A DNA stretch of 64,000 bases from a bacterium (GTDB lineage Bacteria; UBA8248): NCBI GenBank assembly GCA_965261085.1, contig OZ253442.1, positions 1,184,001 to 1,248,000 on the forward strand. The letters are read 5' to 3'. Position 1 is the stretch's first letter. Every line of letters starts with the position of its first letter. The notes under the pieces are model-generated. The model was not told the origin of the DNA, searched no databases, and saw only the letters and a list, made by a program, of their open reading frames with translations. This document shows positions 8,900-31,374 of the stretch, one piece after another. A program made the position numbers and the translations under genes.

Positions 8900-8913
8900 C
8901 AATGGCGCGAAAC

Positions 8914-8942: not shown

Positions 8943-9054
8943 TTCAGAGTATATGGGAAATTTCGGTTGAAGGGACTTCGGATGCTCAGGGATGGGGGAG
9001 GCCAAAAAGTGGCCTCGCACTTCGGTGTTGTTCCACTTTGTGGAGGAAAATAAA

Positions 9055-10083: not shown

Positions 10084-10142
10084 GTAAAATGAATAACAGT
10101 AGATCCATCTGATATGTCGAACCACTTTGAGGAGGGTTTCAA

Positions 10143-12786: not shown

Positions 12787-12875
12787 AGAGGAAAGCTAAG
12801 CGCAACTTCGTGCTTAAATGGACAGAGAGATCTATTCGTTAAAGCCGCGTCAGAGCAGACACAATGAGGGGAGAA

Positions 12876-13154
12876 ATGAGCTAGTACAAAAGCGAAATTC
12901 GAGGCGGCATGCGCATCGACTGGGACGTTCCGCTCGAAATTGACGATGACGTAGTTCTGCGTGCCGACGTCTTTCGGCCCGTCGAGGAGAGGAATATTCA
13001 CAAAGACAGAGGCTTCGTCTACGATGTTTTGGGTTTCGGCGCCCAGCTCGACTCCGACTCTTTCGAAGTCTACTCCCAGATGCACTACGGCTTTTTCAAA
13101 GAAGAACCTCGCAACCTCGATCCCAAGACCCGCGAGCTGATCGAGAATCAATAG
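12876..13154 (+). pseudogene. Chimeric remnant: CocE/NonD hydrolase N-terminus fused to a CMD-repeat fragment
   Basis: MS*YKSEIRGGMRIDWDVPLEIDDDVVLRADVFRP (premature TAG), then KDRGFVYDVLGFGAQLDSDSFEVYSQMHYGFF...LDPKTRELI homologous to the 10143-11435 repeats. Confidence 0.7.
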
Positions 13155-13171
13155 AAATTTAAGGAAATGGT

Positions 13172-14908
13172 ATGGCGGTAGCAACGTCAAGTCGCGGTTC
13201 TCTCTGGTTGGGCCTCGTGGGGGCAGTGCGCGGCTGGCGCCATGAAGCCCTTCGCTCGCTTATTTTTCTCGCCACCGCCATTATCCTCGGATTTTTTGTC
13301 CTCTACCCTCTTGGAATTTTGTTCAAGCGAAGCCTGTACGACTACGACGTACAAGTGTGGACCCTGAACAACTACAGGACCTTTTTCTCTGATCCGGAAC
13401 TTCTCGATGCTTTCTGGACCACGATCAAGCTTGCAATCGGGACATCCATATTTTCCCTCGTTGTAGCGCTTCCGATGGCGTGGGGAGTTTCCCGGACGGA
13501 CATGCCTTTCCGGGGATTCATCCGCTCCATGGTGGTGCTCACCTTCGCCACCCCGAGCTTCCTGGGGGCGATTGGATGGATTGTCCTGCTCGGTCCCCGG
13601 GCGGGCATATTGAACAAGGCATTCATGTGGATTTTCTCGACCGACACACCGCTGTTCAACATCTTCAGTTTCGCCGGGATGACCTTCGTAATGGGGTTGT
13701 TCGTCTATCCTTTCCTTTTCTTCTCGGTCGTCTCGGCGCTCGACAACATGGACCCGAGCTACGAGCAGGCCGCCCGGATCCTGGGTTCCAACAACTTCCG
13801 GGTGATGCGGACCGTGACCCTTCCCATTGTCACCCCGGCTATCCTGTCAGGGCTCATACTCGTAATTTTGGAGAGTTTTGTCGTTTTCGGAGCGCCGGCC
13901 ATTGTGGGAAACCCTGTCCATATCCAGACCCTATCGACCCAGGTCTATACCCTGTTTTCGAACGATCCGCCCCAATTCCACATGGCCGCGACGGCAGCGA
14001 CGCCGATTGTCATCGTGACCGCAATCTTGCTGGTCCTCCAGCGCTTTTATCTGGGGCGGAAGCAATACGTCACCATCACCGGCAAATCTCCTCAGCCCCA
14101 ATTGGTGGATATCGGCCGGTGGAAATATGCTCTCGGGGCATATTCGTACGGCATCGTCTTCGTGAGCATCATTCTCCCGATGCTGGCGCTTTTCGAGTCC
14201 TCCATCCTGCGCATCTGGGGCGCTCCGCTTTCATTTTCCAATCTCACTTTCGAGAACTACATCAACCTGTTCACCACCTCGGACGTCGTGGTGCGCGCGT
14301 TCACGAACAGTTTCAAGCTCGCTGTCGGCGCCGCCTTTGTCTGTATCGGGTTTACCTTTGTCATGGCGTGGATCGTCGAACGAACGAATGTGCCCGGAAA
14401 GGAGGGCCTCGCGCTGCTTTCGATGATCGGAATGGCGTTTCCCGGGGTCGCCCTCGGGGTGGCGCTCGTGCTCGCGTTCGCGGGCGGCCCGCTCCCGCTC
14501 TACGGCACCCTTTGGCTGTTCCTCATCGGCTACTTCGTCAAGGGAACGCCCATCGCCTTCATGTTCGCCCGGGCCTCCCTGAAGCAGATTCACGAGGAGC
14601 TTGAGCAGAGCTCGCGCATCCTCGGGGCGCACTGGGCCAAGACGATGAAGGACATCACCCTTCCTCTCATGAAGAAGGCGTTGCTCTCCGTCGGAACGAT
14701 CATTTTCTGCCTGAAATTCCGCGAAATGGCGACTTCCATCATGCTCTACACGGGCGGGCTCGAGGTGATCTCGATCCTCATCTTCGAATACATCGAAGAG
14801 GCGGAGATGGGAACCCTGGGCGCCCTGACGTTCCTCGTATTTTGCGTTAATCTGACTCTTATCGGGCTTTCCCGCAGAATCGTGGGAAAGGGCGCGTTCG
14901 AGATGTGA
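13172..14908 (+). CDS. ABC transporter permease (FbpB-type, two domains)
   Basis: Multiple TMs, two EAA loops (YEQAARILGS, LEQSSRILGA). Confidence 0.92.
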   Translation: MAVATSSRGSLWLGLVGAVRGWRHEALRSLIFLATAIILGFFVLYPLGILFKRSLYDYDVQVWTLNNYRTFFSDPELLDAFWTTIKLAIGTSIFSLVVALPMAWGVSRTDMPFRGFIRSMVVLTFATPSFLGAIGWIVLLGPRAGILNKAFMWIFSTDTPLFNIFSFAGMTFVMGLFVYPFLFFSVVSALDNMDPSYEQAARILGSNNFRVMRTVTLPIVTPAILSGLILVILESFVVFGAPAIVGNPVHIQTLSTQVYTLFSNDPPQFHMAATAATPIVIVTAILLVLQRFYLGRKQYVTITGKSPQPQLVDIGRWKYALGAYSYGIVFVSIILPMLALFESSILRIWGAPLSFSNLTFENYINLFTTSDVVVRAFTNSFKLAVGAAFVCIGFTFVMAWIVERTNVPGKEGLALLSMIGMAFPGVALGVALVLAFAGGPLPLYGTLWLFLIGYFVKGTPIAFMFARASLKQIHEELEQSSRILGAHWAKTMKDITLPLMKKALLSVGTIIFCLKFREMATSIMLYTGGLEVISILIFEYIEEAEMGTLGALTFLVFCVNLTLIGLSRRIVGKGAFEM

Positions 14909-14920
14909 GGCGGGAAACCG

Positions 14921-16006
14921 ATGCCGGATCTATCCATTAACGGCCTGACGAAGGCCTTCGGCGAGACCATCGCCGTCAATGACCTTTCGCTCGAATTCAA
15001 AGAGGGCGAATCGGTGGTGCTGCTCGGCCCGAGTGGGTGCGGAAAGACCACGCTCCTCAAGCTGATCGCGGGTTTCCTCCAGCCAGGCGCGGGCGAGATC
15101 GCCATTGGCGGCCGGGTCATCTCGACCCGCCACGAGATGCTTCCCCCGGACCACAGGAAAATGTCGATGGTGTTCCAGTCCTACGCCATCTGGCCGCACA
15201 AGTCGGTGTTCCAGAACGTGGCCTACGGGCTCGAAGTGCGGAAGATCAAAAAGGCCGAGATCGAAAGGAAAGTGATGAACGCCCTTTCCCTCGTCCAACT
15301 CGACGGCCTCGAGGGCCGCTACTCCACCGAGCTCTCGGGCGGACAGCAGCAGCGCGTGGCCCTGGCGCGAGCGATCGTGGTCGAACCCTCCCTTCTTCTG
15401 CTGGACGAGCCTCTCTCGAACCTCGACGCCAACCTCAGGGTTGAGATGCGCGGGGAGCTGGCCGACCTCCACGACCGGCTGGGCATCACGTTCATCTACG
15501 TCACCCACGATCAGGCCGAGGCGATGGTCCTGGGGGATCGGGTCGTTTTGATGAATCAGGGAGTCATGGTCCAGCAGGGCCCGCCCGAGGAGATCTACGA
15601 GACCCCAAAGACCCGTTTCGCGGCGAATTTCATGGGGACCTCGAACATTTTCACCGGGTCGGTGGCCAGCGGGGCCGGTGCCAACGGCGCGATCCGGGTG
15701 GACACGAAGTTCGGGCCGGTCGCCGTGGCGCTGGGCGCCAGGCAGGCCCCCCCCACGGGGGAGGAGGTGCACTTCTGCATCCGGTCCGAACTCGTTCAGA
15801 TTCATCCGGGCGCGCCTTCTCCCGAGTCCAACCGGTATACGGCACGGATCCTCAAGCGGCAGTACTACGGCAAGCACGTTCAGTACGTCATGGATCTCGC
15901 GGGCGAGGAGCTTCAGGTGGAGTCTTTATCGGACATGAACGTCTCGGCGGGATCGGAAGTGACTATCGAATTACCTCCGGAGCATTGTGTGTTCCTGGAG
16001 GAGTAA
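14921..16006 (+). CDS. ABC transporter ATP-binding protein (FbpC/PotA-type)
   Basis: [26 protein letters not shown]-like tail. Confidence 0.95.
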
Positions 16007-16458
16007 CCGGAAACCACTCGGTGCATCGGCACACATCACACAGGGGAGAACATCATGGGTAGAAAGCTGTTTGTCATCGTGGCGGCCGCGGCTTTTGCGG
16101 CGGCGGGGTTGCCGTGACTTGCCCTCAAGATACATGAGGCCAGAAAACCCACCAGCGTGATTGTGGCGGCTGTCTGCAATCGGTGGATAAGGTGACTCTA
16201 TCATCAGATGCAGCGGCAGGCCGCATGAGTGAGAGGGAGACACGGTCGCCTTCCCGCGCTTGCGACGGCGAAATCGAGCCCCCTTGGGCTTCAAAGCTCG
16301 GTCTAAGATAGGTCAGCCGTCGCCCTCTCAAAGCACCCAGATGGGCAAGACTCACAAGCCAACGCTCGGATAGAAGAATAGGACTCGCGGCTGCCTGGTT
16401 GAGAAAATACCTTAACGCGCAACGGGCTTTCATAGAAGGGGGGAACGTCAGGAAGAAT

Positions 16459-16575
16459 TCAGCGATACACTGCAATATGATAGGCAGCTATCAATATCGC
16501 CAGAAAGAGAACCGCAAACGGCAATAAGGGAAGGAGAAGAGTTCTCATTTTTCGGAAGAACGGCGGTGTTTTCAT
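16459..16575 (-). CDS. Small membrane protein (38 aa) coupled to the TauE gene
   Basis: ATGA overlap with TauE stop; MKTPPFFRKMRTLLLPLLPFAVLFLAILIAAYHIAVYR has a single TM. Confidence 0.5.
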   Translation of the reverse strand: MKTPPFFRKMRTLLLPLLPFAVLFLAILIAAYHIAVYR

Positions 16576-17729
16576 ATCTTGAAGGGAAGTCCAATCAAGT
16601 AGTTCAATAGATACACCAAGCCACCCAGGCCGCTCAGGATCCCCAGCATCAGCTTGAGGTAGTGTTCGGGCACGAATTTCTGCGTTTTGGATGCGCACCA
16701 TGCCCCCATTACAGCGGAGGAAGCGACCAGGAAGCCCCATCCCCACTCCGAATTTACATAACCGCCAGTGAGCAGGGGGAGAGTGACGTTGTAGGCGAAG
16801 AACCCGACGAGCGACTGCACCACGACGAACGGGATGGAGGCGGCCACGACCACAAACATCGGGAGCCGGTAAATCTTCACCAAGAGCGGGGTCATTAAGA
16901 ACCCTCCGCCCACGCCTATCGTAGAGGATACTAGGCCGACCCCTGTCCCCAGAAGCAGCAGCAGGGGCGGACACAAAGTATAGCTCTCATCCCAAAAGGA
17001 AATGGTGATTCTCCGCCACGAACGCTCCAGCGTATGAATCATCGCCTTCTCCGGGATGCCAGAGGGATTCTTACCTTCTCGGAGCATTTTCTTCACATGG
17101 GCGTCGAACTTCGCCTTGAATGTTGTGAGGTCGCGCCTCCGGGCCAGATACCGCGGCGTGACCTCGTACATCAGATGACCCCCCAAATAGAAAAGCCCTG
17201 CGCCGATCAATGCCTTGATGGGAGCCGGCTGAGACAGGAAGTACACCCGAATGAAGGGGCCAGCCTGCGACCCCACCAGCGTGCCGAGGCAAAGCCACAG
17301 AGCAATGTCCAGGTTCCAGCGCCTCTCTCGCCAGAAGCCCATGAGCGCGCCATAGGGATTGAGGAATGTAATGAGAAGGTGGGTGGGGGTTACGGCGAGC
17401 GTCTGAAAATTCAGCACAGACATCGAGTAAGGGAGCGCGAGAAGACCGCTGGCCTCACCCACCAGCGCCATGATGTAGCCGGTCCAGAAGCCCAGCCAGA
17501 GAAGATGCCACAATGGGACCGCCACTTCGGCGAGGGGATACGGTCGATCTCCTCCCGGCATGAAACCATGCTGCAAGTAGTTAGCGGCAATCCCGAGGAC
17601 AAACAGAGAAATCACGAAGGGAGCCTGATCCAGCAGAAACTCCCGCAGGATGGGATGTCGAGAAAGTAATTTCTTTGGAAGCATCTCGCCCTCTTCAATG
17701 GAAACAGATGTCTTTTCGGAGTCAACCAT
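16572..17729 (-). CDS. TauE/SafE family sulfite exporter-like permease
   Basis: Two repeats with GEASGLLALP / GVGGGFLMTP motifs, many TMs. Confidence 0.82.
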   Translation of the reverse strand: MVDSEKTSVSIEEGEMLPKKLLSRHPILREFLLDQAPFVISLFVLGIAANYLQHGFMPGGDRPYPLAEVAVPLWHLLWLGFWTGYIMALVGEASGLLALPYSMSVLNFQTLAVTPTHLLITFLNPYGALMGFWRERRWNLDIALWLCLGTLVGSQAGPFIRVYFLSQPAPIKALIGAGLFYLGGHLMYEVTPRYLARRRDLTTFKAKFDAHVKKMLREGKNPSGIPEKAMIHTLERSWRRITISFWDESYTLCPPLLLLLGTGVGLVSSTIGVGGGFLMTPLLVKIYRLPMFVVVAASIPFVVVQSLVGFFAYNVTLPLLTGGYVNSEWGWGFLVASSAVMGAWCASKTQKFVPEHYLKLMLGILSGLGGLVYLLNYLIGLPFKI

Positions 17730-18050
17730 ATGGCGTGCCCAATAAATCCCAGTCGGCGAAACCCCTATCGTCATGCCACAACATTTGAAGCAAGGGAGCA
17801 AGAACAATGGCATGGAGGAATTCTGGGACTGCAGACGCTCATGGTTCCGCCTCACTGCAAGACAAGGTCAGATTCGACGACTGAGCCATAATCAAATTCT
17901 TGTTCGTTTTTCATCTAGCGATGTCAAGTTCAACTGCCTAGGTTCGCCGTCCGCATCCCATTTCCCGAGCTTCAAACGGGGAAAATGCCCTCTTGACACC
18001 TGTCCGAGTTAATGAGAAAGTTCCGTAAATTAGCATAAGAGGTCCGGAAA

Positions 18051-18836
18051 ATGAAACTACTCGAAAAGTTGTTGTCCATCTTGGACCTTTTTACCTCCCA
18101 GCGGCCGGTCCTGACATTCCCGGAAGTGGTCAAGCTTTCGGGATTCCCCAAGAGCACCGCACTCCGACTTACGCGAACCTTGGAGGAGTCGGGTCTCATT
18201 CAGCGAACGAGCACCGGACGGGGTTGGGTCTTGGGCCTAAGGCTCATCGGAATGCTGAGAAGCCTGGTCCATCAGGACGTGGTGGCCAGCAGCTCCTATC
18301 ATATGCGCCATCTCCGTGATCGAACGCAAGAAACGGTGTGCCTATGGAGAAAGATGGGCAATGCGCGTGCGTGTGTCATGCAGTTCGAAAGCTCACACGA
18401 ATTGCGGATGGCCGCCGAGCTCGGCAAACTTGTTCCCCTCTATTGCGGAGGGGCGGGGAAAATTCTGCTGGCGCACTTGAGCCAGGAGGAGACCGACCAA
18501 TATTTCCGACAGGTCCTGCTCAAGCCCGTCGGCCCTTCGACAGTCGTGCGCGAAGAAGAACTGCGGCGCGAGCTTCCGCGCATCAAGGCCAAGGGGGTAT
18601 CCATTGGGGTTCAAGAGCGGACCGTGGGCGGCGTGGGCATCGCGGCGCCAATCTATACGGCGAACGGCTGTGTGGACTATTGCATCAGCCTCTACGTGCC
18701 TGATTTGAGATTTTCCCGTAAAGCGAAATCGAATCTCACACGGGAACTCCGAATAGCGGTATCTGATATCAGTAAGGATTTGGGATTTCGAATAGATTTG
18801 CTTTCGTCAAATCTGTCTTATGGGAGATTGGCATGA
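18051..18836 (+). CDS. IclR family transcriptional regulator
   Basis: HTH PKSTALRLTRTLEESG, PLYCGGAGKILLA, GIAAPI. Confidence 0.93.
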   Translation: MKLLEKLLSILDLFTSQRPVLTFPEVVKLSGFPKSTALRLTRTLEESGLIQRTSTGRGWVLGLRLIGMLRSLVHQDVVASSSYHMRHLRDRTQETVCLWRKMGNARACVMQFESSHELRMAAELGKLVPLYCGGAGKILLAHLSQEETDQYFRQVLLKPVGPSTVVREEELRRELPRIKAKGVSIGVQERTVGGVGIAAPIYTANGCVDYCISLYVPDLRFSRKAKSNLTRELRIAVSDISKDLGFRIDLLSSNLSYGRLA

Positions 18837-19300
18837 GAGAATTTGAAGGGAGAAAATTCATCGCTTTCGGCGAGCGAGACGGCGTCCAGGGGCGCCTGAT
18901 CGGCGAATGCCTGCGCGGCGGGGGACTAGAAGTGGTCCTCGAACTGACCCAGTGCTTCGTCTGAACCGCGGCGGGAGGCATGGACTTTGAAAACCAAGCC
19001 TCCATCAAGCGCCTCGTCGAGGCGCACGGCAAAGAGAACCTAATCGCAGTCCTGGGTGCCAAGGATCCGAGCACCATCGAAACAATGGGGGTTACCCTCA
19101 CCAAGGGTGACCCCAGCTACGCGGGACCGCTGGGAGGGGTGGAGCTCGATCTCCCCTTCTACCACATATTCGAGCCCGCCTTCGAAGCGATCATCCCGGA
19201 AGCGCTTTACCAGGAGAAATTGGAGTTCCCCAAGCTGTCGACTGACTTGGACTCTCTGTTCGGAGCCATCGAGAAGGTGCGCAGCTTGAGCGCCGGCTAG
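18833..19300 (+). CDS. grdA: Glycine/sarcosine/betaine reductase selenoprotein A
   Basis: ATG 18833 overlaps IclR stop; GERDGV...TQCFV-UGA(18962)-TAAGGMDFENQ...TLTKGDPSYAGPLGGV; hairpin GGAGGC...GCCTCC 18974-19003. Confidence 0.93.
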
Positions 19301-19341
19301 CGGGGCACATCGGCTCGGCAAAATATAATGGGAGGTTCCCG

Positions 19342-20760
19342 ATGGAATTGATGGCGGCAGGATATCATCTCTTCCACGTTTCCGACCTCGTGCGGTACGG
19401 CGCCAAGCCTCTGTGGGAACTGTCAGTCCGACCTGCCCTTCGCTCCGAATTCGCCAATCGCCTGCGGACGTTCCAATCGGTGGTCGATTACCTCCCTCAT
19501 CAGGTGTTCATCGGAAACCAGGGGCCGGAAGATCTGAATCGGGAGCCGAGGCCTTGGTTTTGCCGCACAAATGGGTCCGCGCCGGTAATCGGGAAGTTCG
19601 GGGAGATCCTTACCCAGCCGGATTTCTTTCTCCTCATGAAGGAAGCGGACCAGTTTGACTTGGTCTGGCTTGAATACGAGTGGCTATCCGGTCAGGAAGA
19701 CCCCTGGAGGTGCCGAGGGTGGAGTCAGGAGGGCCTCGGACCCCTGGAGGGGAAACTCTTGGGGGACATCAATGACGAGATAGACCGAGAAGGCGCTTTG
19801 CCGCTCTTCCACGAGGGGAAGACGGTGGGATGCGTGCGCCAAGCCCACGAGCAAGATCCAAATCTCGAACCGACGGTGCTTCTGGAGAATTTTGCCGCGA
19901 AGGCCACCGGTGCTTTCGCGCTGCGTCACCTGCTGACTCAACAACGGATGGATCCCGAAACGGTCGATGTGGTCCTCTCATGCTCTGAGGATGCGGTGGG
20001 CGATCGGTACAACAGGGGAGGGGGGAATCTGGCCAAGGCGATCGCGGAGATGGCGGGCTGCTCCAATGCGAGCGGGGTAGACATCAAATCCTTCTGTGCC
20101 TCGCCGGGTTACGCCATCGTCCACGGTGCGGCCCTCATCTCGGCCGGAATTGCACGCCAGGTGGCGGTGGTGGGCGGCGGCTCCCTCCCCAAGCTCGGGA
20201 TGAAGTTTCTGGGACATCTCAAGAACGACATGCCCATCCTGGAGGATGTCCTCGCCAGCATGGCCTTCCTGATGACCGGACGTACGGGGGAAGCTCCCTT
20301 CATCCGCATGGAGGCGATTGGGCAGCATCGGGTCAAGGCGGGGATCTCCGAGCAGGCGCTGCTCGAGACGCTGGTGGGCGAGCCGCTCCGGGCTCTTGGG
20401 ATGAAAATGCTGGACATCTCCCGTTTCGCCGTGGAGCTCCACAATCCGGAAATCACCGAGCCAGCGGGTAGCGGAGATGTCCCGCGCAACAACTACCGCT
20501 CGTTGGGGGCGTTCGCCGTTCTGCGGAAAGAAATACTCGCCACCGAGATCCCGGAGTTCGTGACTTCCCGGGGGATGGTGGGATTTTCCCCGACGCAGGG
20601 CCACATACCGGCCGCCGTCCCCTATGTCGGCCACGCTCTGTCCCGACTTCGGCAGGGAAGCTTGGACCACGTGATGTTCGTCGCCAAGGGAAGCCTCTTC
20701 CTCGGGCGGATGACCCAGCTGATGGACGGGATCTCGTTCGTCTTGTCACGGCCGGAATGA
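19342..20760 (+). CDS. grdC: Glycine reductase complex component C beta subunit-like
   Basis: YLPHQVFIGN, CSEDAVGDRYNRGGGNLAKAIAE, FCASP, KLGM, ELHNPEIT.PAG.GDVP..NY, PTQGHIP, KGSLFLGRMT. Confidence 0.9.
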   Translation: MELMAAGYHLFHVSDLVRYGAKPLWELSVRPALRSEFANRLRTFQSVVDYLPHQVFIGNQGPEDLNREPRPWFCRTNGSAPVIGKFGEILTQPDFFLLMKEADQFDLVWLEYEWLSGQEDPWRCRGWSQEGLGPLEGKLLGDINDEIDREGALPLFHEGKTVGCVRQAHEQDPNLEPTVLLENFAAKATGAFALRHLLTQQRMDPETVDVVLSCSEDAVGDRYNRGGGNLAKAIAEMAGCSNASGVDIKSFCASPGYAIVHGAALISAGIARQVAVVGGGSLPKLGMKFLGHLKNDMPILEDVLASMAFLMTGRTGEAPFIRMEAIGQHRVKAGISEQALLETLVGEPLRALGMKMLDISRFAVELHNPEITEPAGSGDVPRNNYRSLGAFAVLRKEILATEIPEFVTSRGMVGFSPTQGHIPAAVPYVGHALSRLRQGSLDHVMFVAKGSLFLGRMTQLMDGISFVLSRPE

Positions 20761-20786
20761 GGTCTACGCTTTGACTGGGAGATGCC

Positions 20787-22070
20787 ATGCGCCTGGAAGT
20801 TCATAATCATACCGTCCGCGAAATAGAGTTCGGATCGAAAAATCAGATGAAAGATGGCAACTTATGCATCGATCCCTCGTACTTGGAAAAGCTCGCACGT
20901 CCGCATCCGGCCATCCAGCGGGTGGCCGTTGAGATTGCGCGGCCGAACGAATCCGTGCGCATCGTCAATCCGCTCGACGCCGTCGAGCCCATCGCCAAGG
21001 CGGGGCCCGCGCCCCTGGACGCCTTCCCCGGTTTCATCGGCCCATCCCAAACGGTCGGCAGCGGCGTCACACACCGGTTAAGCAATCTGCGCGTGGTGCA
21101 GTGCGGAATCTTCCCCAAAAAGTCCACCGGCGTCCTGACCGTCCGCCCGGCAGTGATCGACATGGCTGGCCCGGCCGCCCCCCTCTGCGCCTGCTCGGAC
21201 AGCTTCAACCTCGTGCTCACGTTTTGGCCTTGTCCGGACGCGACGAACCACGAGTTTGATGTGGCCATTCGAACAGTGACTCTGCAGTTCGCCCATCATC
21301 TCGGGAGCCTCGGCTTCGAGCAGGAGCTGGACGACGTGGAAGTGTTCGACATAGCAGCGTCATCGGACGGCCAGAAGCCACGCGTCGTCTATATCGGCCA
21401 AGTCCAGGACCAAGGGGAACTCGTCCAAACCTTCCTTTACGGGCAGAGCACGCGAATCCATACCCCTACCGCTCTATACCCGACGGAAATGCTGGATGGC
21501 GCGGTGGTGAGCGGCAATTACAAGAGTGCGATGAAAATTCCCACGTTCATGCATTGCCGCAACCCGGCAATCATGGAATTGCTAGACCGGCACGACAGAG
21601 ATCTGCTGTTCGCGGGGGTGATTCTGACGCGGGGTCACAACGACAACCACTTGCTGAAGGAGCGGAGCGCCTATTTTGCGGCGAACCTGGCGCGGCTGCT
21701 TCAAGCCGATGGCGCGATCATCAGTATCGAGGGGACCGGCAACACCATCATCGATGCAATGCTGACGGTGCGGGCCTGCGAGTCGGCAGGCATCAAGACG
21801 GTGCTGAAAATCCATGAGCACGCAGGGCAAGACGGGCGCGACTTTCCGGTCGCGGATTTCGTCCCGGAAGCGGATGTCATCGTGAGCACGGGGAATCTGG
21901 ACGAGCCGTTGGTCCTGCCGCCAGTGGAAAAGGTCCTCGGGCCCCAACCGCTCGAATTCTACGAGCGCCCACCCATCGATCCATTGGCGGGCGGGGAAGT
22001 GACGGGACACGAGCTTTACGCAAGCCAGTGGCAGATGGGGATATCGGGGATTTCCTGCGTCTCCTTCTAG
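20787..22070 (+). CDS. grdE: Glycine reductase component B alpha/beta proprotein-like (GrdE/GrdI family)
   Basis: IARPNESVRI...DAVEP, FPGF..GSG.TH.L, IDMAGP, PT.LYPTE.LDGAVVSGN, KERSA, DGAIIS.EG.GN, VSTGN. Confidence 0.85.
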   Translation: MRLEVHNHTVREIEFGSKNQMKDGNLCIDPSYLEKLARPHPAIQRVAVEIARPNESVRIVNPLDAVEPIAKAGPAPLDAFPGFIGPSQTVGSGVTHRLSNLRVVQCGIFPKKSTGVLTVRPAVIDMAGPAAPLCACSDSFNLVLTFWPCPDATNHEFDVAIRTVTLQFAHHLGSLGFEQELDDVEVFDIAASSDGQKPRVVYIGQVQDQGELVQTFLYGQSTRIHTPTALYPTEMLDGAVVSGNYKSAMKIPTFMHCRNPAIMELLDRHDRDLLFAGVILTRGHNDNHLLKERSAYFAANLARLLQADGAIISIEGTGNTIIDAMLTVRACESAGIKTVLKIHEHAGQDGRDFPVADFVPEADVIVSTGNLDEPLVLPPVEKVLGPQPLEFYERPPIDPLAGGEVTGHELYASQWQMGISGISCVSF

Positions 22071-22080
22071 GAGAGAATTC

Positions 22081-23415
22081 ATGTCCATTCGAGTGGTCCA
22101 TTATCTCAATCAATATTTTGGCGGCAAGGGGGGTGAAGAAAAGGCGGATTGCCCATTGGAGATCATAGAAGGCCCCGTAGGGCCCGGGAAGCTACTCCAG
22201 CGGGAGTTGGGCGACGACGCTTTTGTGACGACCATTATTTGCGGCGACGGTACCTTCGAGAAGGCCGAAGGCCAGACCCTCGAAGAAATTCGGCGGGCCA
22301 TCCGGGGGGCATCGCCCCATGTGCTCATCGCGGGGCCAGCGTTCGCGTCCGGAAGATACGGACTGGCCTGCGGTGCGGTGGCGGCCTGTGCCATGAGCGA
22401 CTGCGGAGTCCCGGCGGTCGTCGGAATGTCGGAGGAGAATCCCGCCCTGGAGTTATATCGCGCGCATGCTTATGTGGTCCCCTCAGGGGATTCCGTCGTG
22501 GAAATGCCGGCCTCTCTGCAGCGGATGGCCCACCTCGCAGTGCGCTTGGGGAGGAGGGAATCCGTCGGAAGCCCGGAGGAGGAAGGCTACTTCCCTCGCG
22601 GCATCCGAAGGAACGCCCGCCATCGCCGCTCGGCGGAAGGGAGGGCGCTAGATCTTCTCCTCGAGAAAATCCGGATGGAGAGCCCGCGGACCGAACTTCG
22701 CCTCAGCGCGGCCGAGGTCGTTCCGCCTCCCTCACCCCTGGCCAACCTGACCGAATCCACCATCGCCGTGGTGACCGAGTGTGGGGTCGTCCCCAAGGGA
22801 AATCCCGGTCGAGTCGAAGGTGTCCGAACGCAGAAATGGGAAAAGTACAGCCTCGATGGTCTTAAGGCGCTTTCCGCCGAGACCCACGAATCCATTCATG
22901 GAGGATACGACAACACGCGGATCAACGAGGACCCCAACAGAGGCGTGCCGCTGGATGCGCTTCGGTCGTTGGAAAGGGAGGGGTTCTTCGGAAGGCTTCA
23001 CGATACCTACTACGTGACCTGCGGGAACTGGGGCAATGTCGGCGTGATGAGCCAGATCGGTAAGGTCATCGCCGCTGAACTGAAAGAGGCTGGGATTCAC
23101 GGGGTCTTGGTGCCGGCTACGTGAGGGTCGGGGACGCGTAGCGGAGCTACGCTGGCGAAACAACTCGAGGCGGCGGGGATTCCCACCGTCTTGGTAACCT
23201 GCTTCTTCACCGTTGCCTTATCTATGGGCTGCAACCGCATTGTGCGGGGCGTCCGATTCCATCACCCGTTCGGGGATCCGGAACTGACCGAGGAGAGAGA
23301 GCGCACCCTTCGGAAGGATCTGGTGCGCGCGGCTCTTCAGACGCTCACCATTTCGATAGACAAGCAAACGGTCTTCGACACGGGCGCGCTGCTAGATGCG
23401 AGCAGCGTGAATTGA
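22081..23415 (+). CDS. grdB: Glycine reductase selenoprotein B-like
   Basis: VVHYLNQYFGGKGGEEKAD, AGPAFASGRYG, VPKGNP, HGGYD, DPNRGVPLD; VPAT-UGA(23122)-GSGTRSGATLAKQLEAAGIP continues in frame to 23415; 7-bp hairpin GCGTAGC-GGA-GCTACGC 23136-23152. Confidence 0.9.
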
Positions 23416-23622
23416 AATGTCCGGGTGAATTCTTGAGGAGAAACGACGATGAAAAAAAAGGATTTCTGATGAATCGCCGGGGATTTCTCCAAAAGCTCAT
23501 CGCGCTCGGCGTCCGGGAGGGGGGAGCACACTACGTCCGGAGTTCCGCGGAGAACATCTCATGCACGCTACACACAACGCCTCAATGAGTTATAAAGCGA
23601 GGCTCTTAACTGAGGAGGGAGA

Positions 23623-24675
23623 GTGATGCCACGTAACAAAAAGATGGTGACACGGAGAAGTTTTCTGAAGAAATCTGCCTTTACTCTGGGAGCATTAACT
23701 GCAGCACCTGGCGTCCTTGCCAAGCCTAGGAAGGGGTACGCTGCTAGCTTCCCAAGCAAGCCAATACACGTGACAGTGCCCTGGAGACCGGGTGGCGGGA
23801 CGGATATTTTTACACGGGGCATTACGCCTGCCTGGGAGAAAGTTCTAGGAGTTCCGATTGTCGTCATTAACAAGCCTGGGGGCAACAACCAGGTCGGCTA
23901 CGAATATGTCTACGGTAAGGAACCTGATGGCTATAACATGGTCTTCGGCCAGCTGCCGAATTTGAATATCACATATCTCTTCCAGAAACCCCCCTACAAG
24001 GCGGAGAGCTGGTCATGGCTGGCGCTGGTTCACGATGACCAGCAGATTTTCTACTGCGCCAAGCAAGCGCCGTGGAAAGACCTGGGAGACCTGGTTGGAG
24101 ATATGAAGCGCCGCCCGGGAGAGATTAGTGTCGGAACCACCTCAAGAGGCTGGCATTACTACTTTCCCCGCCTTCTCGAAAAGAAGACGGGCCTTAAGTT
24201 CGGCAAGATACTCCCGTTCGAAAGCGGAAAGGGAGCCAGTTTGACTCGTGAAATCCGAGGCGGCCATCAGCTGCTCGCGACTCATGGTAGTTGGGTCTCC
24301 TGGGCTCGCAGAGTTCCAACATTTGCACGCGGCTTGGGGACGTGTGCCTTGAAGAGAAGTCCCTTGTGGCCAAATGTTCCTACGTGGAACGAGGTCCTGC
24401 CTCCAGAGCAGCATGTCACAGAGGATGAAATCTACCCGACTGTTTACAAGGGTTTCGTGTTTCCGAGTGCAGTCAAAGAGCAGTATCCAGACCGTTGGAA
24501 AGTGCTAGATGAAACATGGCGACAAACGATGACCACGAAGGCATTTAAGGATGCCGTTGCTAAACTTAGGGCGACAACAGTTATTCGATATAAGGGACTC
24601 GATGAGGCTGACAGAGAGATGAAGAAGTTCGACAAGATTTTGACGGAGCACAAAGACATTTTCGCGCGAAGGTAG
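23623..24675 (+). CDS. tctC: Tripartite tricarboxylate transporter binding protein (TctC/Bug), Tat signal
   Basis: TRRSFLK Tat motif, FPSKPI.VTVPWRPGGGTD, NKPGG, PDGY. Confidence 0.9.
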   Translation: MMPRNKKMVTRRSFLKKSAFTLGALTAAPGVLAKPRKGYAASFPSKPIHVTVPWRPGGGTDIFTRGITPAWEKVLGVPIVVINKPGGNNQVGYEYVYGKEPDGYNMVFGQLPNLNITYLFQKPPYKAESWSWLALVHDDQQIFYCAKQAPWKDLGDLVGDMKRRPGEISVGTTSRGWHYYFPRLLEKKTGLKFGKILPFESGKGASLTREIRGGHQLLATHGSWVSWARRVPTFARGLGTCALKRSPLWPNVPTWNEVLPPEQHVTEDEIYPTVYKGFVFPSAVKEQYPDRWKVLDETWRQTMTTKAFKDAVAKLRATTVIRYKGLDEADREMKKFDKILTEHKDIFARR

Positions 24676-24761
24676 AACAAATTTGTAGGGTGAAGCTGGA
24701 TCAAAGACAGGGATGAGGGGGAAACGTTCAATCCTGAGCACCCTCAGGAAGTAGGGCACTT

Positions 24762-25178
24762 ATGCGCTTACATCGCTTATTCTTGCCAACTTTTGCGGTT
24801 GTATTCTCAATCGGTTATTTCTTTGACACCTACTCTCTTCCATTTTCCTCGACTTTGTATCCGCGAATCCTCATAGTTCTTCTTCTTGGCTTGTCCGTCT
24901 ATGAGCTTTGGAAAGAACTCCACGATGCCAGCCCCGAAACAGAAGAAGAGAAAATGCCAAATCGCCAAATCTTGTCAAAGATTGGTGCTGTGATCATTCT
25001 TTCTGTTGCCTATGCCCTCACGGTCGAGCGCATGGGCTTCCTACTGGCGACTCCCGTATTAGTATTTTTTATGCTTCTCGTGTGCCGTGTGACGGCCTGG
25101 AAATCGATACTCATGGCAATTTGTACGACAGCGGCATTTTATACTGTATTCGTAAAGTTTCTTCTTCTTCCGCTTTAA
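24762..25178 (+). CDS. tctB: TTT small permease TctB
   Basis: 4 TMs, YPR, GFLLAT, C-terminal F...L.LP. Confidence 0.8.
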   Translation: MRLHRLFLPTFAVVFSIGYFFDTYSLPFSSTLYPRILIVLLLGLSVYELWKELHDASPETEEEKMPNRQILSKIGAVIILSVAYALTVERMGFLLATPVLVFFMLLVCRVTAWKSILMAICTTAAFYTVFVKFLLLPL

Positions 25179-25190
25179 GGGAGCGTCACC

Positions 25191-26690
25191 ATGTATGACG
25201 CGATGTGGCCCGGGCTTCATTTGCTTTTTAAATTCGAAAATTTGATTTTTCTGTTTATCGGTGTACCAATAGGAATTATTTTTGGCGCTTTACCAGGAAT
25301 AAACTCGACCACTGCCATGGTATTAATGCTTCCCTTCACTTTCTGGATGAAGCCAGAACAGGCCGTCATATTTTTGATGGCTATTGCTGGTGCCTCAATT
25401 TACGGTGGCGCAATTCCAGCGATTCTTTTTGGAATGCCTGGAACACCAGGATCTAGCGTAACCGCCATTGAGGGCTATGCAATGACCCGCAATGGCGAAG
25501 GGATTAGAGCTCTTTCCATATCAGCTCTCGCCTCTTCCATAGGAGCTTTCCTGAGCGGCATTTCCTTAATGGTACTTGCTCCCCTCCTCGCTGTTTTCGC
25601 TCTCACATTCAGCTTTCCGGAGTTGGTGCTTATTGCTTGCTTTGCCCTTATCTTCCTCGCAGCCTTCAAAAAGTCGATGACTAAAGGACTCCTGGCCGCT
25701 CTTTTAGGACTTTTATTGGCAACTATCGGGACAGACCCTTTCTTTGGATACCCCAGGATGATTCTGGGCGTAGTCGCGTTATATGAGGGCCCATCGATTA
25801 TTGTAGCCCTTATTGGCTTCCTCTGCTTTTCTGAGGTTCTGATCCTTTGTGAGAGGCAGAGCGTAGTTAGGAGGGATGTGGAAACCCGAAGGGGAATAAG
25901 AGAAGTATATTTAGGTATATCCGATGTTTTACACAAACCAATCCATGTGCTTGCCGGCACTATCGCGGGTATCATAGTTGGCGCAATTCCTGGAGCTGGC
26001 ACTGGCATAGCCAACTTTCTGGGATACGTCGCGGGGAATGCCTTATCCAAGAACCCCGATCAATTTGGCAGAGGGACAGTCGATGGCGTTATCGGACCAG
26101 AGGCCGCAAACAGCGCAGTGGAAGGCAGCTCGTTGATTCTCGCGCTTACAGTTGGTATCCCCGGTAGCGGGATGGCTGCTGTAGTTCTTGCAGCGCTTAT
26201 GATTCACGGCATTGTACCGGGGCCTGATGTTTTCATACTTAAAGGCGAGCTCGTGTGGGCTGTGATGTGGTCAATTCTTTTGGGCGCTGTCGTAGTTTGC
26301 ATTGTGGGCTTGACATTGTGCAATTATTTCGGCCGCTTGGTGAGCCTTCCCATATCATATCTAGTCCCATTTCTAGTCCTGTTCATGATCATCGGGAGTT
26401 ATGCTGCGCGCAATTCAGCAGTCGACATTGTGACGATGATAGTCCTTGGGGTGCTTGGCTATTTCATGGCAAAATCTGGGTATGAGCGGCTGGCCATCGT
26501 ATTTCCGTTTATTCTTGGTGGGATGATTGAGCAAGGAATTGTATTATCGTTGCAACGCTCAGACGGGAACCCCCTCATATTCTTCCAAAGGCCTCTCGAT
26601 TTAGTGCTTTGGGCTTTTCTTGTCCTAGGGCTTCTCTCAATTAGGTGGCTGAAACGGCGAGTAGAGCGCACAGCTGAGCCATTCGTTTAG
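25191..26690 (+). CDS. tctA: TTT large permease TctA
   Basis: GALPG, YGGAIPAIL..PGTP, PEAANSA, GIPG, G..PGP. Confidence 0.92.
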   Translation: MYDAMWPGLHLLFKFENLIFLFIGVPIGIIFGALPGINSTTAMVLMLPFTFWMKPEQAVIFLMAIAGASIYGGAIPAILFGMPGTPGSSVTAIEGYAMTRNGEGIRALSISALASSIGAFLSGISLMVLAPLLAVFALTFSFPELVLIACFALIFLAAFKKSMTKGLLAALLGLLLATIGTDPFFGYPRMILGVVALYEGPSIIVALIGFLCFSEVLILCERQSVVRRDVETRRGIREVYLGISDVLHKPIHVLAGTIAGIIVGAIPGAGTGIANFLGYVAGNALSKNPDQFGRGTVDGVIGPEAANSAVEGSSLILALTVGIPGSGMAAVVLAALMIHGIVPGPDVFILKGELVWAVMWSILLGAVVVCIVGLTLCNYFGRLVSLPISYLVPFLVLFMIIGSYAARNSAVDIVTMIVLGVLGYFMAKSGYERLAIVFPFILGGMIEQGIVLSLQRSDGNPLIFFQRPLDLVLWAFLVLGLLSIRWLKRRVERTAEPFV

Positions 26691-27768
26691 TCCCACGTGG
26701 GGTCAATCCCGCCCGGGGAGCCTGAATACGAGACTACGGATTGATAGATAACCTAAGCTTAAAGCTCAATTCTAATCTTTTCATGTGAGGATTGCACGCA
26801 GCTTTTGAACAGAAGTATGGGCAGTTGACCTGCCCTCAGTTGTTGTACCACTCCTGTGCTCCGCAAAAATTGGATCCTCCATAAAAAGAATACTTTGCCG
26901 AGGTCGCCAGATCAGGTTTAGGCGTGCCATGATCCATCTTATGGTCAAAGCCAAAGCCATTTTTCATGTTCTGATTGCCCCGTGCATGGCAAATTAGTAA
27001 ATCGCCATGCACAGGATTCATGGAGTAGGAAAAAACGACTAAAGCCCGATCCACTTCCGGGAGGGCATTTGCACAGGCCTGAGGAACCCACCGGAACCAT
27101 CTGGGTGGTGTCCTTATAGGTAACTACAACCGGTGCGTATCAGTACCAACCGGAGTCACTCAGGTTCACTTCGGGAATTGCTCAACTCCTTGAAACGTAT
27201 CGCTCCAGGTCACTACAAGCTCAATCAGGCTCATACCCCTTGCATTGCCCTTACAAGGCAACGTTTCTCGGCATCTGAATTATTCTCCCCAATATTTTTC
27301 TCGGGCCATGTCACATAATCCGTATACTGGCCCCCATGGGCACAGGGGCAGGGGGCGCGACACTCGTTTTCTGATACCGGTGCTAGCGCTCCCCCCTGCG
27401 CGCCCTCTCTCCCCGAGTGCCTTCCCCTGGATTTGAAGGCGGACAATTCACGGACAGAGCAGAGAATTAGGTTGGAAATAAAGAGATTCAAGGGGGCCGT
27501 TGGGTTCATAACCCAACGCGCGCGGAAAAAGTGGCTCGCGAGGCATTGATGCGATTCGCCGAAGAATCTTTTTATACTCAAAACCCACCACCATATAAAT
27601 TGACAGATAAAACCATTATCCTGCATCCGCTTGGGCGCGATTTTTTTAAGCGTAATATGAAAATCGTCTGGTGTTGGGCTTTATGCACAGGACGAACTAT
27701 CGACAAGCACGGAACCCAAACATTCCTGCGGTCGCCAACAAGATCGGTTTTCCAGAATCTCGCGGACA

Positions 27769-29020
27769 ATGGAAAGGAGAGCGGGAGACTTCCTGCGCGG
27801 GGGCGCGGACCCCCGGGAGGGGGAGCACCTCTTCGAGCGCAAGGCGGCGGACGCTCTCTCCCCGCGCGCTCACTCGATGAGCGAACTGCTTCTCGCGAGT
27901 TCGTTTCACATCGCCTCGGGGGAGGGCGAGGGCAAGGGTGAGTCCGGACGCTGGTCGCTGTGGGGCCCGGGGGGCGCGCTCGAGCTTCAGCGGCAGGGAC
28001 GGCGACCTCGCGCTGGACGGCGACGTCACGACGGGTCTCGTGGGCGCGGACTACGAATCGGGCAAGGCGCTCCTGGGCGTGGCGCTCGCCTGGAGCGCGG
28101 GGGATGGTTCCTACAAGGGCGCAGGCGCTGCGGGCGAGCTCGAATCCACGCTTGCGAGCGTATACCCCTACCTGCGCTACAGGATGAGCGAGCGCCTCTC
28201 GGTCTGGGGCGTCGTGGGAATGGGCGAGGGCGACCTGACGCTTAAGACGCCCACGGGCGAGACGATGGAGACCGGCCTCTCGCTGGCGATGGCGGCGCTG
28301 GGGGTGCGCGGGGCGCTTCTCTCGAGGGCGGGCTACGAGTTGGCGGTGAAGTCCGACTTCACCTTCGTGCAGAGCGAATCGGAGAAGACGACGGGCCTGG
28401 CCTCCGCGGAGGCGCAGACGAGGCGCCTGCGCCTCGTGTTCGAGGGTTCGCGCGAGATGGACTTGGGCGCCGGTTCGCTGACGCCCTCGGTGGAGGTGGG
28501 CCTGCGCTACGACGGTGGCGACGCGGAGACGGGCGCCGGCGTGGAGTTGGGCGGCGGGGTGCGCTACGCGGCTTCGGGGCTCACGATGGAGGTCCGCGTA
28601 CGGGGCCTCCTCGCGCACGAGGAGAGCGACTATGAGGAATGGGGCGTGAGCGCCTCGGTGGTCTTCTCTCCCGGTTCGGAGGGGCGCGGGCTCTCGATGC
28701 GCGTGGGTTCGGCCTGGGGCGCCGCCTCGGGCGGGGCGGGCCGCATCTGGACGGGCGGGGCGGCGGGTCTCGCGGGGAGTGCGGATCAGCCCGGCGCGAG
28801 CCTGGACGCGGAGGTGGCCTACGGGCTGGACGCCTTGCGCGGCCTGCTGACGCCGTATGCGGGCGTGGCGCTCTCGGAGAACGGCGAGACCTGGCGCGCG
28901 GGCGCGCGCTGGAAACTCGGTCCCGCCTTCGACTTGGAGCTGGAGGCGAGCCTGAAGGAACCCGTAGGGGATGAGGAGCCCGAAGGCGGACTCCTCCTGC
29001 GCGGCTCGAGAAGGTGGTAG
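27769..29020 (+). pseudogene. Truncated, frameshifted autotransporter-like beta-barrel remnant
   Basis: LLLASSFHIASG...GRWSLWG shifts frame near 27965 into LDGDVTTGLVGADY...LTPSVEVGLRYDGGDAETGAGVELGGG...LRGSRRW; no passenger or signal peptide. Confidence 0.7.
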
Positions 29021-29401
29021 GCGGACCGCTTCCCGCTTGAAGCGGACGCCGCCGCCGGAGGAATCCGGCGGCGCTACGGGGCGCGGGCGGTGGTTCCCGA
29101 ACCGACGTTTCGGGCTGGACTTTGGAGGAGCGCCGCACGATTCACCGACACGTGTAAAAGTTCAGTCGTGGGGTGATAGAGTGGACCACAGCATCGACTG
29201 GGTCGATCTTGACGGCGGGTTCACGGACATGATGACCAGATTGAGAATGCTAGCCGTATACCGCAACCGCTTGATTCTTCTGCCGCCTTCGAATTAAGAA
29301 AGCACCGGGTCAAGCCAACTATGATCGGGAAGAACACAGAAACGTCGCTGGCCCCGACGACGCCATCACCCCACGACTGAACCATTACGACGTGGACGCG
29401 A

Positions 29402-29562
29402 CGGGATGCGCAGAAGTTTCAATGAATCCGCTTTCGTTTTGATTACTAATTGTAGAAGGCAGATTCTGAATAAATTCAGAAAACTTATATATCCAAAATA
29501 ATTTCAATAAGATATAGGGGTTTCATAGCCGATCAAAACCTCTTAATGTCTCTAAGACGAGC
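29402..29562 (+). repeat. Direct repeat copy 2 (161 bp, AT-rich)
   Basis: Matches 8739-8899; weaker similarity extends about 40 bp upstream (CCATCACCCCACG). Confidence 0.95.
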
Positions 29563-29593
29563 GAAGGCAAAAACAGAATGAGGATTGAACCCT

Positions 29594-29875
29594 CTACCGA
29601 ACCGCCTGGACTTCGAGCCGAAGCCCCTCGCGCTCCTGGAGACAAGCGATGACCTCGAACAAATTGCGGGCTTGGGGTCAGCCCCGACCGAAGAGGGAGT
29701 CGAGCTTCCCCGAGGAGGGGAAGGTCGTGCCGGCCCGAACATGCGCATCAAGCTCTTGGGCGATTTTCCGGTGAGGTCAATCGCGACTGATGAAGGAGCG
29801 ATTGCTACGATTGATGAAAGCCGATGGTCGCGTTGATGAAATCGCGCAGCACCGCCTTGCCGACTTCCATCCGAT
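29594..29875 (-). pseudogene. Disrupted addiction-module antitoxin/HTH regulator
   Basis: Fragments EVGKAVLRDFINATIGF, DLTGKSPKSLMRMFGP and QARNLFEVIACLQEREGLRLEVQAVR* separated by inserted sequence; second fragment IGKAVLRDIINATIGFE at ~30378-30430. Confidence 0.65.
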
Positions 29876-29890
29876 GTGTGTCTCAGAATT

Positions 29891-30039
29891 ACTCCCCCCT
29901 TGAGGGGGAGTCAGTGAGGTAAGGGCGTTAGCCCGCTAGTGAACTGGTGGGGGGAGCTTTTACTTTAGAATCATCCCCCCACCGCATCAGCCTTCGCACA
30001 AAACACTCGGCTTCTGCGACTCCCCCTCAAGGGGGGAGT
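29891..30039. repeat. REP/BIME-like element (paired ACTCCCCCCTTGAGGGGGAGT palindromes)
   Basis: Two inverted palindromes with internal hairpins; inverted homolog at 30451-30642. Confidence 0.8.
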
Positions 30040-31289: not shown

Positions 31290-31312
31290 CTCAATTTCTT
31301 CCTTTTCCCCCA

Positions 31313-31374
31313 CCTCTTCCACTTCACGAAATCCAGCCACCACGTCTATCTTACCGCGTTTTTGAGATTAGGCC
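31313..31374 (-). repeat. Duplicate of the 3' end of CDS 34646-35353 (copy C)
   Basis: CTTCCACTTCACGAAATCCAGCCACCACGTCT...GAGATTAGGCC. Confidence 0.85.

Follow-up and report, generated by a model that had tools for sequence, protein, structure and literature searches.

The window analyzed here, a 64,000-nucleotide stretch of contig OZ253442.1 (positions 1,184,001 to 1,248,000, forward strand) from the bacterial assembly GCA_965261085.1 (GTDB lineage UBA8248), carries an operon that resembles those of the glycine reductase (GR) selenoenzymes, together with a transporter and a regulator. When open reading frames (ORFs) were called with TGA read as selenocysteine (Sec, U) and then scanned against protein families, nine genes were recovered between positions 16572 and 26690. 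The first of these, on the minus strand and divergent from iclR, encodes a TauE/SafE-family membrane protein (16572..17855; PF01925, 102.7 bits, cut-off 32.6); its likely true start is Met58 at 17684, giving a protein of 370 aa, which is also the length in the database cluster of the same protein. The remaining genes are all on the plus strand. An IclR-family regulator (18051..18836; PF09339 and PF01614, below every NCBIfam equivalog cut-off) is followed by grdA for selenoprotein A (18833..19300; NF040748, 147.5 bits, cut-off 130), a grdC of the short GrdD-independent type (19342..20760, 472 aa; NF040746, 556.7 bits, cut-off 450), a grdE-like gene for a protein B subunit (20787..22070; PF09338, 330 bits) and a grdB-like gene for selenoprotein B (22081..23415; TIGR01918, 409.5 bits, cut-off 65.45; PF07355, 382 bits). 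The adjacent genes tctC, for a divergent solute-binding protein (23623..24675; PF03401, 43.8 bits), tctB, for the small membrane subunit (24762..25178; PF07331, 64.2 bits), and tctA, for the large membrane subunit (25191..26690; PF01970, 403.1 bits), each score above their own Pfam cut-offs and thus form a tripartite tricarboxylate transporter (TTT). TctC has a twin-arginine signal (T-R-R-S-F-L-K), and its best solved relative is 25hk (E = 3e-18). The gene content and order, including the divergent tauE, agree with a preliminary description of this DNA made from its letters alone, except that the start given there, 16459, is not that of tauE but that of an ORF which overlaps it in a different frame. 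An Rfam scan of window positions 12000–30000 at E up to 1 returned no riboswitch or any other family, and hence no RNA clue to a ligand.

Both selenoprotein genes appear fully equipped for Sec decoding. In grdA, the in-frame TGA is codon 44 (18962–18964), within the motif C-F-V-U-T-A-A-G that contains the C-x-x-U of selenoprotein A, and a hairpin resembling a Sec insertion sequence (SECIS) lies 12 nt 3' of it (18974..19003, plus strand; fold z-score −2.11 over a 72-nt stretch). In the grdB-like gene, the TGA is codon 348 (23122–23124), which aligns with the Sec of 83 homologues, and a SECIS-like hairpin with a 7-bp stem and a GGA loop lies 11 nt 3' of it (23136..23152, plus strand; z-score −2.19). 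This second hairpin is also found in a paralogous operon of the host, where a compensatory change has turned one U-A pair into C-G. The host genome, a single contig of 4.27 Mb that is 96% complete, encodes tRNA-Sec (found with aragorn), SelB (384 bits), SelA (579 bits) and SelD (336 bits), so that the possibility, raised earlier, that the genes are pseudogenes in a genome without Sec machinery falls away. The selD gene (G000:C1:3459-4421, minus strand, where G000 is the host genome) itself contains one in-frame TGA, and SelD is therefore probably a selenoprotein here. The absence of trxB from the cluster was noted correctly, and a thioredoxin reductase (TrxB, 362 bits) is encoded elsewhere in the genome; there are no trx genes among the nine, and no search aimed at trxA was made.

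Furthermore, G000, G030 and G033 all carry the nine genes with undisrupted frames and with both UGA codons in place. A comparison of the host with its sister species G033, 99.4% identical at the DNA level, counts 24 synonymous and 22 non-synonymous differences (pN/pS 0.30, from small counts). An 8.8-kb stretch was found nearly whole in 16 sequencing runs from at least 8 studies. Contigs assembled from RNA libraries in 4 runs of 2 studies also match the operon with 0–3 differences each, two of them (X17 and X18) on 18.7–24.8 kb, from grdA to tctC, and two (X19 and X20) on 18.8–21.9 kb, from grdA to grdE. No such contig fell on tauE, tctB, tctA or 26.7–28 kb, and contigs of this kind cannot show absence. 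These results show that the four grd genes, for selenoproteins or their partners, are undamaged and can be decoded in the host genome, where they are very likely expressed.

The active-site motifs set the operon apart from the textbook enzyme. The GrdB-like protein reads V-P-A-T-U-G-S-G-T-R-S-G around Sec348, without a CxxC, and the GrdE-like protein reads V-S-G-N-Y-K-S-A-M, of which S-G-N-Y-K-S-A-M spans residues 242–249 (nt 21510–21533); both motifs, U-G-S-G-T-R-S and S-G-N-Y-K-S-A-M, had been read exactly in the preliminary description. For comparison, we took the best 80 of 587 relatives (one genome per species) and the genome's own two copies, a set biased towards sequences that resemble the query alignment, and read through UGA, which gave 84 GrdB homologues (83 with Sec) and 74 GrdE homologues. 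The reference motifs proposed earlier proved to be real: U-G-T-C-T-R-C was present in 60 of the 83 Sec-containing GrdB homologues and N-C-V-S-[AS]-C in 52 of the 74 GrdE homologues, with 51 of these 52 paired with U-G-T-C-T-R-C and the last with a GrdB lacking an in-frame U. Both cysteines were lost from GrdB in 11/83, across several phyla, only the first in 10/83 and only the second in 1/83, and one more kept both with another change; U-G-S-G-T-R-S itself was found in the window protein only.

Losses of this kind are not confined to the window, which tempers the earlier emphasis on "rewired active sites". The far operon paper describes a FarB without CxxC and a FarE without the two cysteines, "similar to" GrdI (PMC10838667). 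Consistent with this, four FarE loci from Synergistota genomes (882–937 bits) have a FarB with U-G-T-S-S-R-C (three loci) or U-G-T-S-S-R-G (one), and a FarE with W-R-Y-W and a deletion at the pyruvoyl site and no Cys. Two sequences of the GrdH type, scoring 831 and 771 bits against a cut-off of 775 for that model, keep U-G-T-C-T-R-C, and their partners read S-G-S-F-M-P-C-S-S. The position of the pyruvoyl-forming Cys is thus aromatic in the non-pyruvoyl types, namely Tyr in the window, Phe in the GrdI-like proteins and Trp in FarE, and it was a reasonable suggestion that the window enzyme would act on a substrate that needs no Schiff base. What is distinctive is the combination of changes within a separate lineage, each single change having a published precedent. 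As a side observation, the same four FarE loci (L119–L122) contain, upstream of farE, a 242-residue match at 31–33% identity to the C-terminal half of GrdB (residues 181–422), which is a second protein with a GrdB/PrdB-like domain, where PMC10838667 describes a radical-SAM gene.

Family scores and phylogeny point to the same separation. The GrdB-like protein is a member of the selenoprotein B superfamily of glycine, sarcosine, betaine and D-proline reductases (TIGR01918, PF07355), and it falls below the specific cut-offs for GrdB (TIGR01917, 379.5 of 602.2 bits), GrdF (NF040794, 409 of 800) and GrdH (NF040795, 363.7 of 775). Similarly, the GrdE-like protein falls below those for GrdG (NF040793, 241.8 of 780) and FarE (NF053623, 109.8 of 675). 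Predicted from sequence, the pair would not be glycine reductase protein B proper, as it has neither the U-x-x-C-x-x-C nor the Asn-Cys self-cleavage site and does not reach the TIGR01917 cut-off. Trees were built with 50 rows for GrdB and 58 for GrdE by a quick search with midpoint rooting, with the Shimodaira–Hasegawa-like approximate likelihood ratio test (SH-aLRT) as the only support measure and with several long branches; neither of them included sequences that exceed the sarcosine (GrdF/GrdG) cut-offs. For GrdB, the window row groups with three database proteins (P0002-4, 61–67% identity; support 100), and this group, the clade of the paralogue (6 rows, 100) and an Entotheonella/proteobacterial pair (100) form a 12-row group (support 93) in which every member reaching past the Sec reads U-G-x-G-T-R-S. 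The canonical clade (23 rows, support 98) includes GrdB from L023_1 (716 bits, cut-off 602) and the GrdH rows L056_2 (831, cut-off 775) and L023_2, away from the window row. In the GrdE tree, the window row pairs with P0121 (about 72–73% identity, support 100) inside a 17-row clade (support 99), separate from a 22-row clade of GrdE and GrdI (99) and from an 8-row clade of FarE with four deltaproteobacterial-type rows (98).

The window pair therefore lies outside the glycine/betaine and fluoroacetate clades in both trees and misses all the curated cut-offs. By its sequence, it is placed in an uncharacterised, environmentally widespread superclade that combines a GrdB with U-G-x-G-T-R-S and a GrdE with N-[YFH]-[KR]. 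The residue of this superclade at the pyruvoyl position is Tyr, Phe or His, and the one after it is usually Lys or Arg (N-Y-K, N-F-K, N-Y-R and so on). The window, the paralogue and Entotheonella (L028) all conform to this pattern, as do most of the closest metagenomic cluster representatives that were inspected. Clustered at 50% identity (E up to 1e-3), the family as a whole gives 926 clusters, of which the closest is 73% identical to the window protein and the second closest 47%. The main texts of the open-access literature searched contained no description of the superclade, of a GR linked to a TTT or of a link between sulfoacetate and GR, and a search of solved structures by sequence gave none for the GrdE family. 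The neighbours of superclade members at L028, L031, L039, L040 and L048 (MmgE/PrpD, short-chain dehydrogenase/reductase, multicopper oxidase, acyl-CoA dehydrogenase, enolase-superfamily, MFS_4, sulfatase and CoA-transferase III genes) were considered as a clue to the pathway and dropped, as they are not shared.

The operon also lacks a partner that usually accompanies GrdC. The preliminary description had found no grdD in the cluster, and this extends to the whole genome: the GrdD model NF040747 gave a best match of 19.4 bits (cut-off 350), in a PlsX-like stretch, and tblastn of the genome with a verified GrdD (582 bits) gave a best E of 0.63. Thus, for protein C, the GrdC component is present without the GrdD partner. 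Among the fetched loci, GrdD stood beside GrdC in 30 of 33 canonical loci versus none of 10 variant loci, and across the phylum, represented by 51 species genomes in our collection, GrdD was found in none, although 37 of the 51 have a GrdE-like gene. Acetate kinase (AckA) had no match in the host genome and was found in 1/51 genomes of the phylum, and phosphate acetyltransferase (Pta) had no match in the host genome. This genome encodes subunit I of a haem-copper oxidase (COX1, 511 bits), and the host is accordingly predicted to be an oxygen-respiring aerobe. The GrdC proteins themselves reflect the difference, those without a GrdD neighbour being 444–506 aa long versus 507–539 aa for those with one (one 860-aa outlier excluded), with the C-terminal tail missing and class-specific substitutions shared; the thiolase-like Cys252 (F-C-A-S) is invariant in both length classes.

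In the 2001 work of Kohlstock et al., GrdD is reported to carry an acetyl-thioester and to make acetyl phosphate. Since the genome has no GrdD, AckA or Pta, the system would not serve substrate-level phosphorylation, and we infer that GrdC alone releases acetate or acetyl-CoA in the host lineage. The loss of GrdD is, on the other hand, not tied to the new active site. Three loci with canonical motifs, L054, L070 and L087, also have no GrdD and share the same GrdC substitutions, and GrdD loss would therefore be a trait of lineages. These loci are Myxococcota-labelled, Syntrophobacteraceae and Alphaproteobacteria, respectively, and GrdD-independent GRs may be common outside Bacillota and Synergistota.

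The host genome contains a second operon of this kind, grdC-grdA(Sec)-grdE-grdB(Sec), at 2.149–2.155 Mb (with neighbours, G000:C1:2142824-2154629, minus strand; locus L006 4824-16629), whose four grd genes are conserved in the family. It belongs to the same superclade, shares the cysteine losses (GrdB U-G-T-G-T-R-S, GrdE G-A-N-Y-K-T-Q-Q), the lack of GrdD and the same four genes, and differs in gene order, in identity (41–51% to the window proteins) and in having no conserved transporter, IclR or TauE. Of the 41 other genomes of the family, 30 carry the paralogous type (40–44% identical to the window protein), whereas the window type, at 98–100% identity, is confined to G000, G030 and G033 of the 51 phylum genomes, all of one genus. 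The paralogous operon is, by its presence across the family, vertically inherited. One member of the family was labelled Nitrospinota by its submitter, and one locus entered our set twice (L088 is the same locus as that of G046). In the host, the paralogous grd genes are followed by a gene resembling dihydropyrimidinase/hydantoinase, a luciferase-like monooxygenase (LLM)-type oxidoreductase and tctBAC, with a second TauE-family gene about 3 kb beyond; among kin, the TTT, hydantoinase and LLM genes show no conservation as neighbours. The hydantoinase and LLM genes beside the paralogous grdB were weighed as a clue to the substrate (hydantoate) and dropped, since a survey of 12 kin loci and 5 others showed them in G000 and G031 only.

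How would such a system work, and on what? We give about even odds to the nine-gene block being a self-contained module, gained by horizontal transfer, that encodes a new subfamily of GR enzymes. In this scheme, TctCBA would import a carboxylate of the form X-CH2-COO-, which would bind to the "protein B" formed by the GrdE-like and GrdB-like proteins; Tyr243-Lys244 stands there in place of the Asn-Cys cleavage site, no pyruvoyl carbonyl would form and X would leave without a Schiff base. Sec348 of GrdB would attack the alpha-carbon and expel X, the carboxymethyl group would pass to Sec44 of GrdA, and the short GrdC would take the acetyl-thioester, probably on Cys252, leaving GrdA in a Se-S form to be re-reduced by thioredoxin reductase and thioredoxin. 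The acetyl unit would probably be released as acetate or acetyl-CoA and not as acetyl phosphate, because GrdD, acetate kinase and Pta are missing, and the system would serve the acquisition of carbon or of the leaving group in an aerobe rather than Stickland-type conservation of ATP. The IclR regulator would sense the substrate or the product.

The gene content narrows the choice of substrate. The retention of GrdA and GrdC implies chemistry through a Se-carboxymethyl intermediate, and hence an alpha-substituted acetate, and the loss of the pyruvoyl site implies a leaving group that can depart without an imine. Three features hint, if weakly, at a second negative charge on X or on the substrate: the Lys next to the aromatic residue, the carboxylate-type importer and the TauE protein, which resembles anion exporters. 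Sulfoacetate is consistent with all three hints as well as with the role that gave TauE its name, but it is a guess, like the sulfonium and quaternary amine compounds proposed earlier. The most far-reaching reading would be a selenium-dependent, desulfonating sulfoacetate reductase in an aerobe: TctCBA would import the dianion, Sec348 would displace sulfite, the TauE-like protein would export it and GrdA with the GrdD-independent GrdC would deliver the two-carbon unit as acetyl-CoA or acetate. We regard this specific version as unlikely, since direct displacement of sulfite is chemically demanding, and the assignment of the TauE-like protein, secure at the family level by the PF01925 cut-off, makes sulfite or sulfoacetate export putative. 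Betaine-like, glycine-like and haloacetate substrates are less likely.

Of these, functional equivalence to betaine reductase is unlikely but ranks highest. The module would then act on an acetate with a quaternary or tertiary amine or with a sulfonium group (glycine betaine, dimethylglycine or dimethylsulfonioacetate), bound through a cation-pi contact with the aromatic residue. The Asn-Cys site is likewise missing from the GrdI-like partners of GrdH, which have Phe there, so the alpha subunit is not a pyruvoyl proprotein in either system and no Schiff base would be needed; an onium leaving group needs no carbonyl (PMC10838667); and many homologues are labelled "betaine reductase" by the Joint Genome Institute (JGI). 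However, the GrdH model stays at less than half of its cut-off, and GrdH keeps U-G-T-C-T-R-C and branches, with the GrdH/GrdI-like rows, inside the canonical clade, far from the window rows. The transporter is also of a different type, with no BCCT or Opu system and a carboxylate-type TTT in their place, and a Lys after the aromatic residue would be unfavourable beside a cation. More improbable is a reductase for glycine or an N-substituted glycine that activates the amine otherwise, perhaps through a carbonyl cofactor derived from a different residue. A common substrate would be expected for a type as widespread in the family as the paralogous one, many variant clades have Tyr at the exact Cys position, and another source of a carbonyl in GrdB has been speculated upon (PMC10838667); yet there is no known route from Tyr to a carbonyl in this fold, the CxxC has been lost as well, the TIGR01917 score is far below its cut-off and the clade is separate.

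A reductive dehalogenase for haloacetates, similar to the fluoroacetate reductase FarEB, is in our estimate slightly more improbable still. FarE/FarB of Synergistota (farACEB) is reported to act on X-CH2-COO- with a good leaving group and to feed GrdA (PMC10838667), and it shows the same kind of cysteine losses, the CxxC being changed in FarB and both cysteines being gone from FarE. On the other hand, FarB mostly keeps its second Cys, the local motif of FarE differs from that of the window, the Far clade is separate, and the FarE model is missed by a wide margin. The far operon also includes an MFS (major facilitator superfamily) antiporter and a radical-SAM protein, neither of which is among the nine genes of the block, and it uses the GrdC/GrdD of an anaerobic host (PMC10838667). 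Lastly, it is very improbable that the block is a recent import that is not, or is no longer, functional in the host. It is present in only 3 of the 51 genomes, its base composition is mosaic, genes for TraC, an IS1595 transposase and AbiV are found nearby, and its GrdE shows 7 non-synonymous versus 2 synonymous changes between G000 and G033. Against this stand the intact frames and UGA codons in three genomes, the overall pN/pS, the SECIS-like hairpins with complete Sec machinery and the RNA-library contigs on the operon.

The view of the block as a single module draws on its mobility. An 11.7-kb segment (16118..27787), from tauE to tctA plus about 1.1 kb, stays together in a different genomic context in the sister species: in G033, it maps to one place as a single 11,679-bp alignment at 99.39% identity, and window positions 8893–16124 map to another contig. 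Being kept together in two contexts (G000 and G033), tauE to tctA would travel as one unit. G030 is 100% identical over all 20 kb, and G014, G026 and G032 are without the block; no convincing terminal repeats were found at its ends. Base composition, however, is not uniform, tctC (GC 0.52; GC at third codon positions, GC3, 0.58) and tctA (GC 0.49, GC3 0.49) being unlike the grd genes (GC3 0.72–0.76) and the surrounding host genes (GC3 ~0.8), which indicates a recent splice. The linkage beyond the Grd proteins is equally uneven. The linkage of tct and tauE, on which the earlier proposal leaned, does not extend beyond the three genomes, at 98–100% identity. The link that recurs in a distant homologue is that to IclR only: a 2.3-kb metagenome contig (L116), the sole contig from a metagenome scan with the GrdE-like protein and one that carries no transporter information, has a 57%-identical IclR gene directly upstream of a 67%-identical GrdE, and two actinobacterial variant loci likewise have an IclR gene ahead of GrdE.

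Several points weigh against our reading of the block. The junction between tct and grd genes may be recent and not yet adaptive, and the three near-identical genomes that link the transporter and TauE to the operon represent one evolutionary event. Among 5.8 billion proteins, none is more than 34% identical to TctC, even though relatives of GrdB and GrdE reach 61–73%; the TauE-like subfamily is widespread (>100 clusters at 44–66% identity) and far commoner than the window Grd type; none of the TctC and TauE-like relatives was traced to the same contigs as the Grd relatives P0002-4 and P0121; and TTT genes lie near Grd genes only in L053 among 80 loci. The exclusion from the sarcosine GrdF/GrdG clade comes from scores of hidden Markov models (HMMs) alone, and both trees are the quick, midpoint-rooted, SH-aLRT-only searches described above. 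The GrdE substitution counts, tiny as they are, lean the same way, DNA carry-over remains possible for the assembled RNA-library contigs, and canonical-motif loci also go without GrdD. Finally, for every member of the superclade, the reading is built on sequence. The earlier idea of a candidate reductase for a new substrate consequently stands as regards the separation from known clades and the plausible Schiff-base-free chemistry, and it does not stand as regards the uniqueness of the active site and the conservation of tct and tauE.

If the module is active, then what would it add to the known systems? The GR complex of amino-acid-fermenting Bacillota (GrdA, GrdB/GrdE, GrdC/GrdD) shares with the window the C-x-x-U of GrdA, the Sec of GrdB, the GrdE partner, the conserved thiolase-like Cys of GrdC and the dependence on the thioredoxin system, whereas the window differs in having no Asn-Cys pyruvoyl site in GrdE, no CxxC after the Sec of GrdB, no GrdD, AckA or Pta in the genome, an aerobic host, and an IclR regulator with a TTT importer. 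In a 2026 review, GrdB is listed as a UxxC(xxC) selenoenzyme of anaerobes, with energy conserved through acetyl phosphate (PMC13188914). The branch described here has lost the CxxC, the site of the carbonyl cofactor and the subunit that forms acetyl phosphate, and it occurs in uncultured bacteria that are predicted to respire oxygen and have no acetate kinase. New here are the absence of GrdD across the phylum, the lack of AckA and Pta in a genome with a haem-copper oxidase, and the short GrdD-independent GrdC. These absences speak against Stickland-type ATP conservation. The preliminary description had missed the paralogous operon, the phylum-wide absence of GrdD, the absence of AckA and Pta, the aerobic host and the mobile, mosaic nature of the block.

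An active module would extend Sec-mediated C-X cleavage to new substrates and to a new physiological role, and it would explain in part why such aerobes keep the costly Sec machinery. If the sulfoacetate version were true, it would represent a new route of C-S bond cleavage and a non-fermentative use of the GR machinery. Furthermore, the nine-gene block brings its own regulator and binding protein, and TctC and IclR are two soluble proteins suited to ligand screens for finding the substrate.

The surroundings of the block are, by their predicted gene content, an accessory region with TraC ATPase, IS1595 transposase and AbiV genes. A TraC-type conjugative-transfer ATPase is encoded at window positions 536–3127 (minus strand; PF11130, 266 bits), and the first 8000 nt of the window have 70% GC versus 49–64% in the following 25 kb, which suggests an integrated conjugative element beside the module. 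Stretches at 8341–8900 and 27875–27981 recur many times, at 73–82% identity, in genomes of the same genus and may be dispersed repeat elements, one of them immediately past the block's right end. Close downstream of the module are accessory or defence genes for an AbiV-type HEPN abortive-infection protein (31715–32641, plus strand; PF18728, 84 bits) and, beside it, an ankyrin-repeat protein (30684–31343, minus strand). An IS1595/ISXO2-like transposase lies at 12107–12772 (plus strand; PF12762, 117 bits), and G030 has two further 100%-identical partial copies (607–722 bp) of this IS1595-like stretch on another contig.

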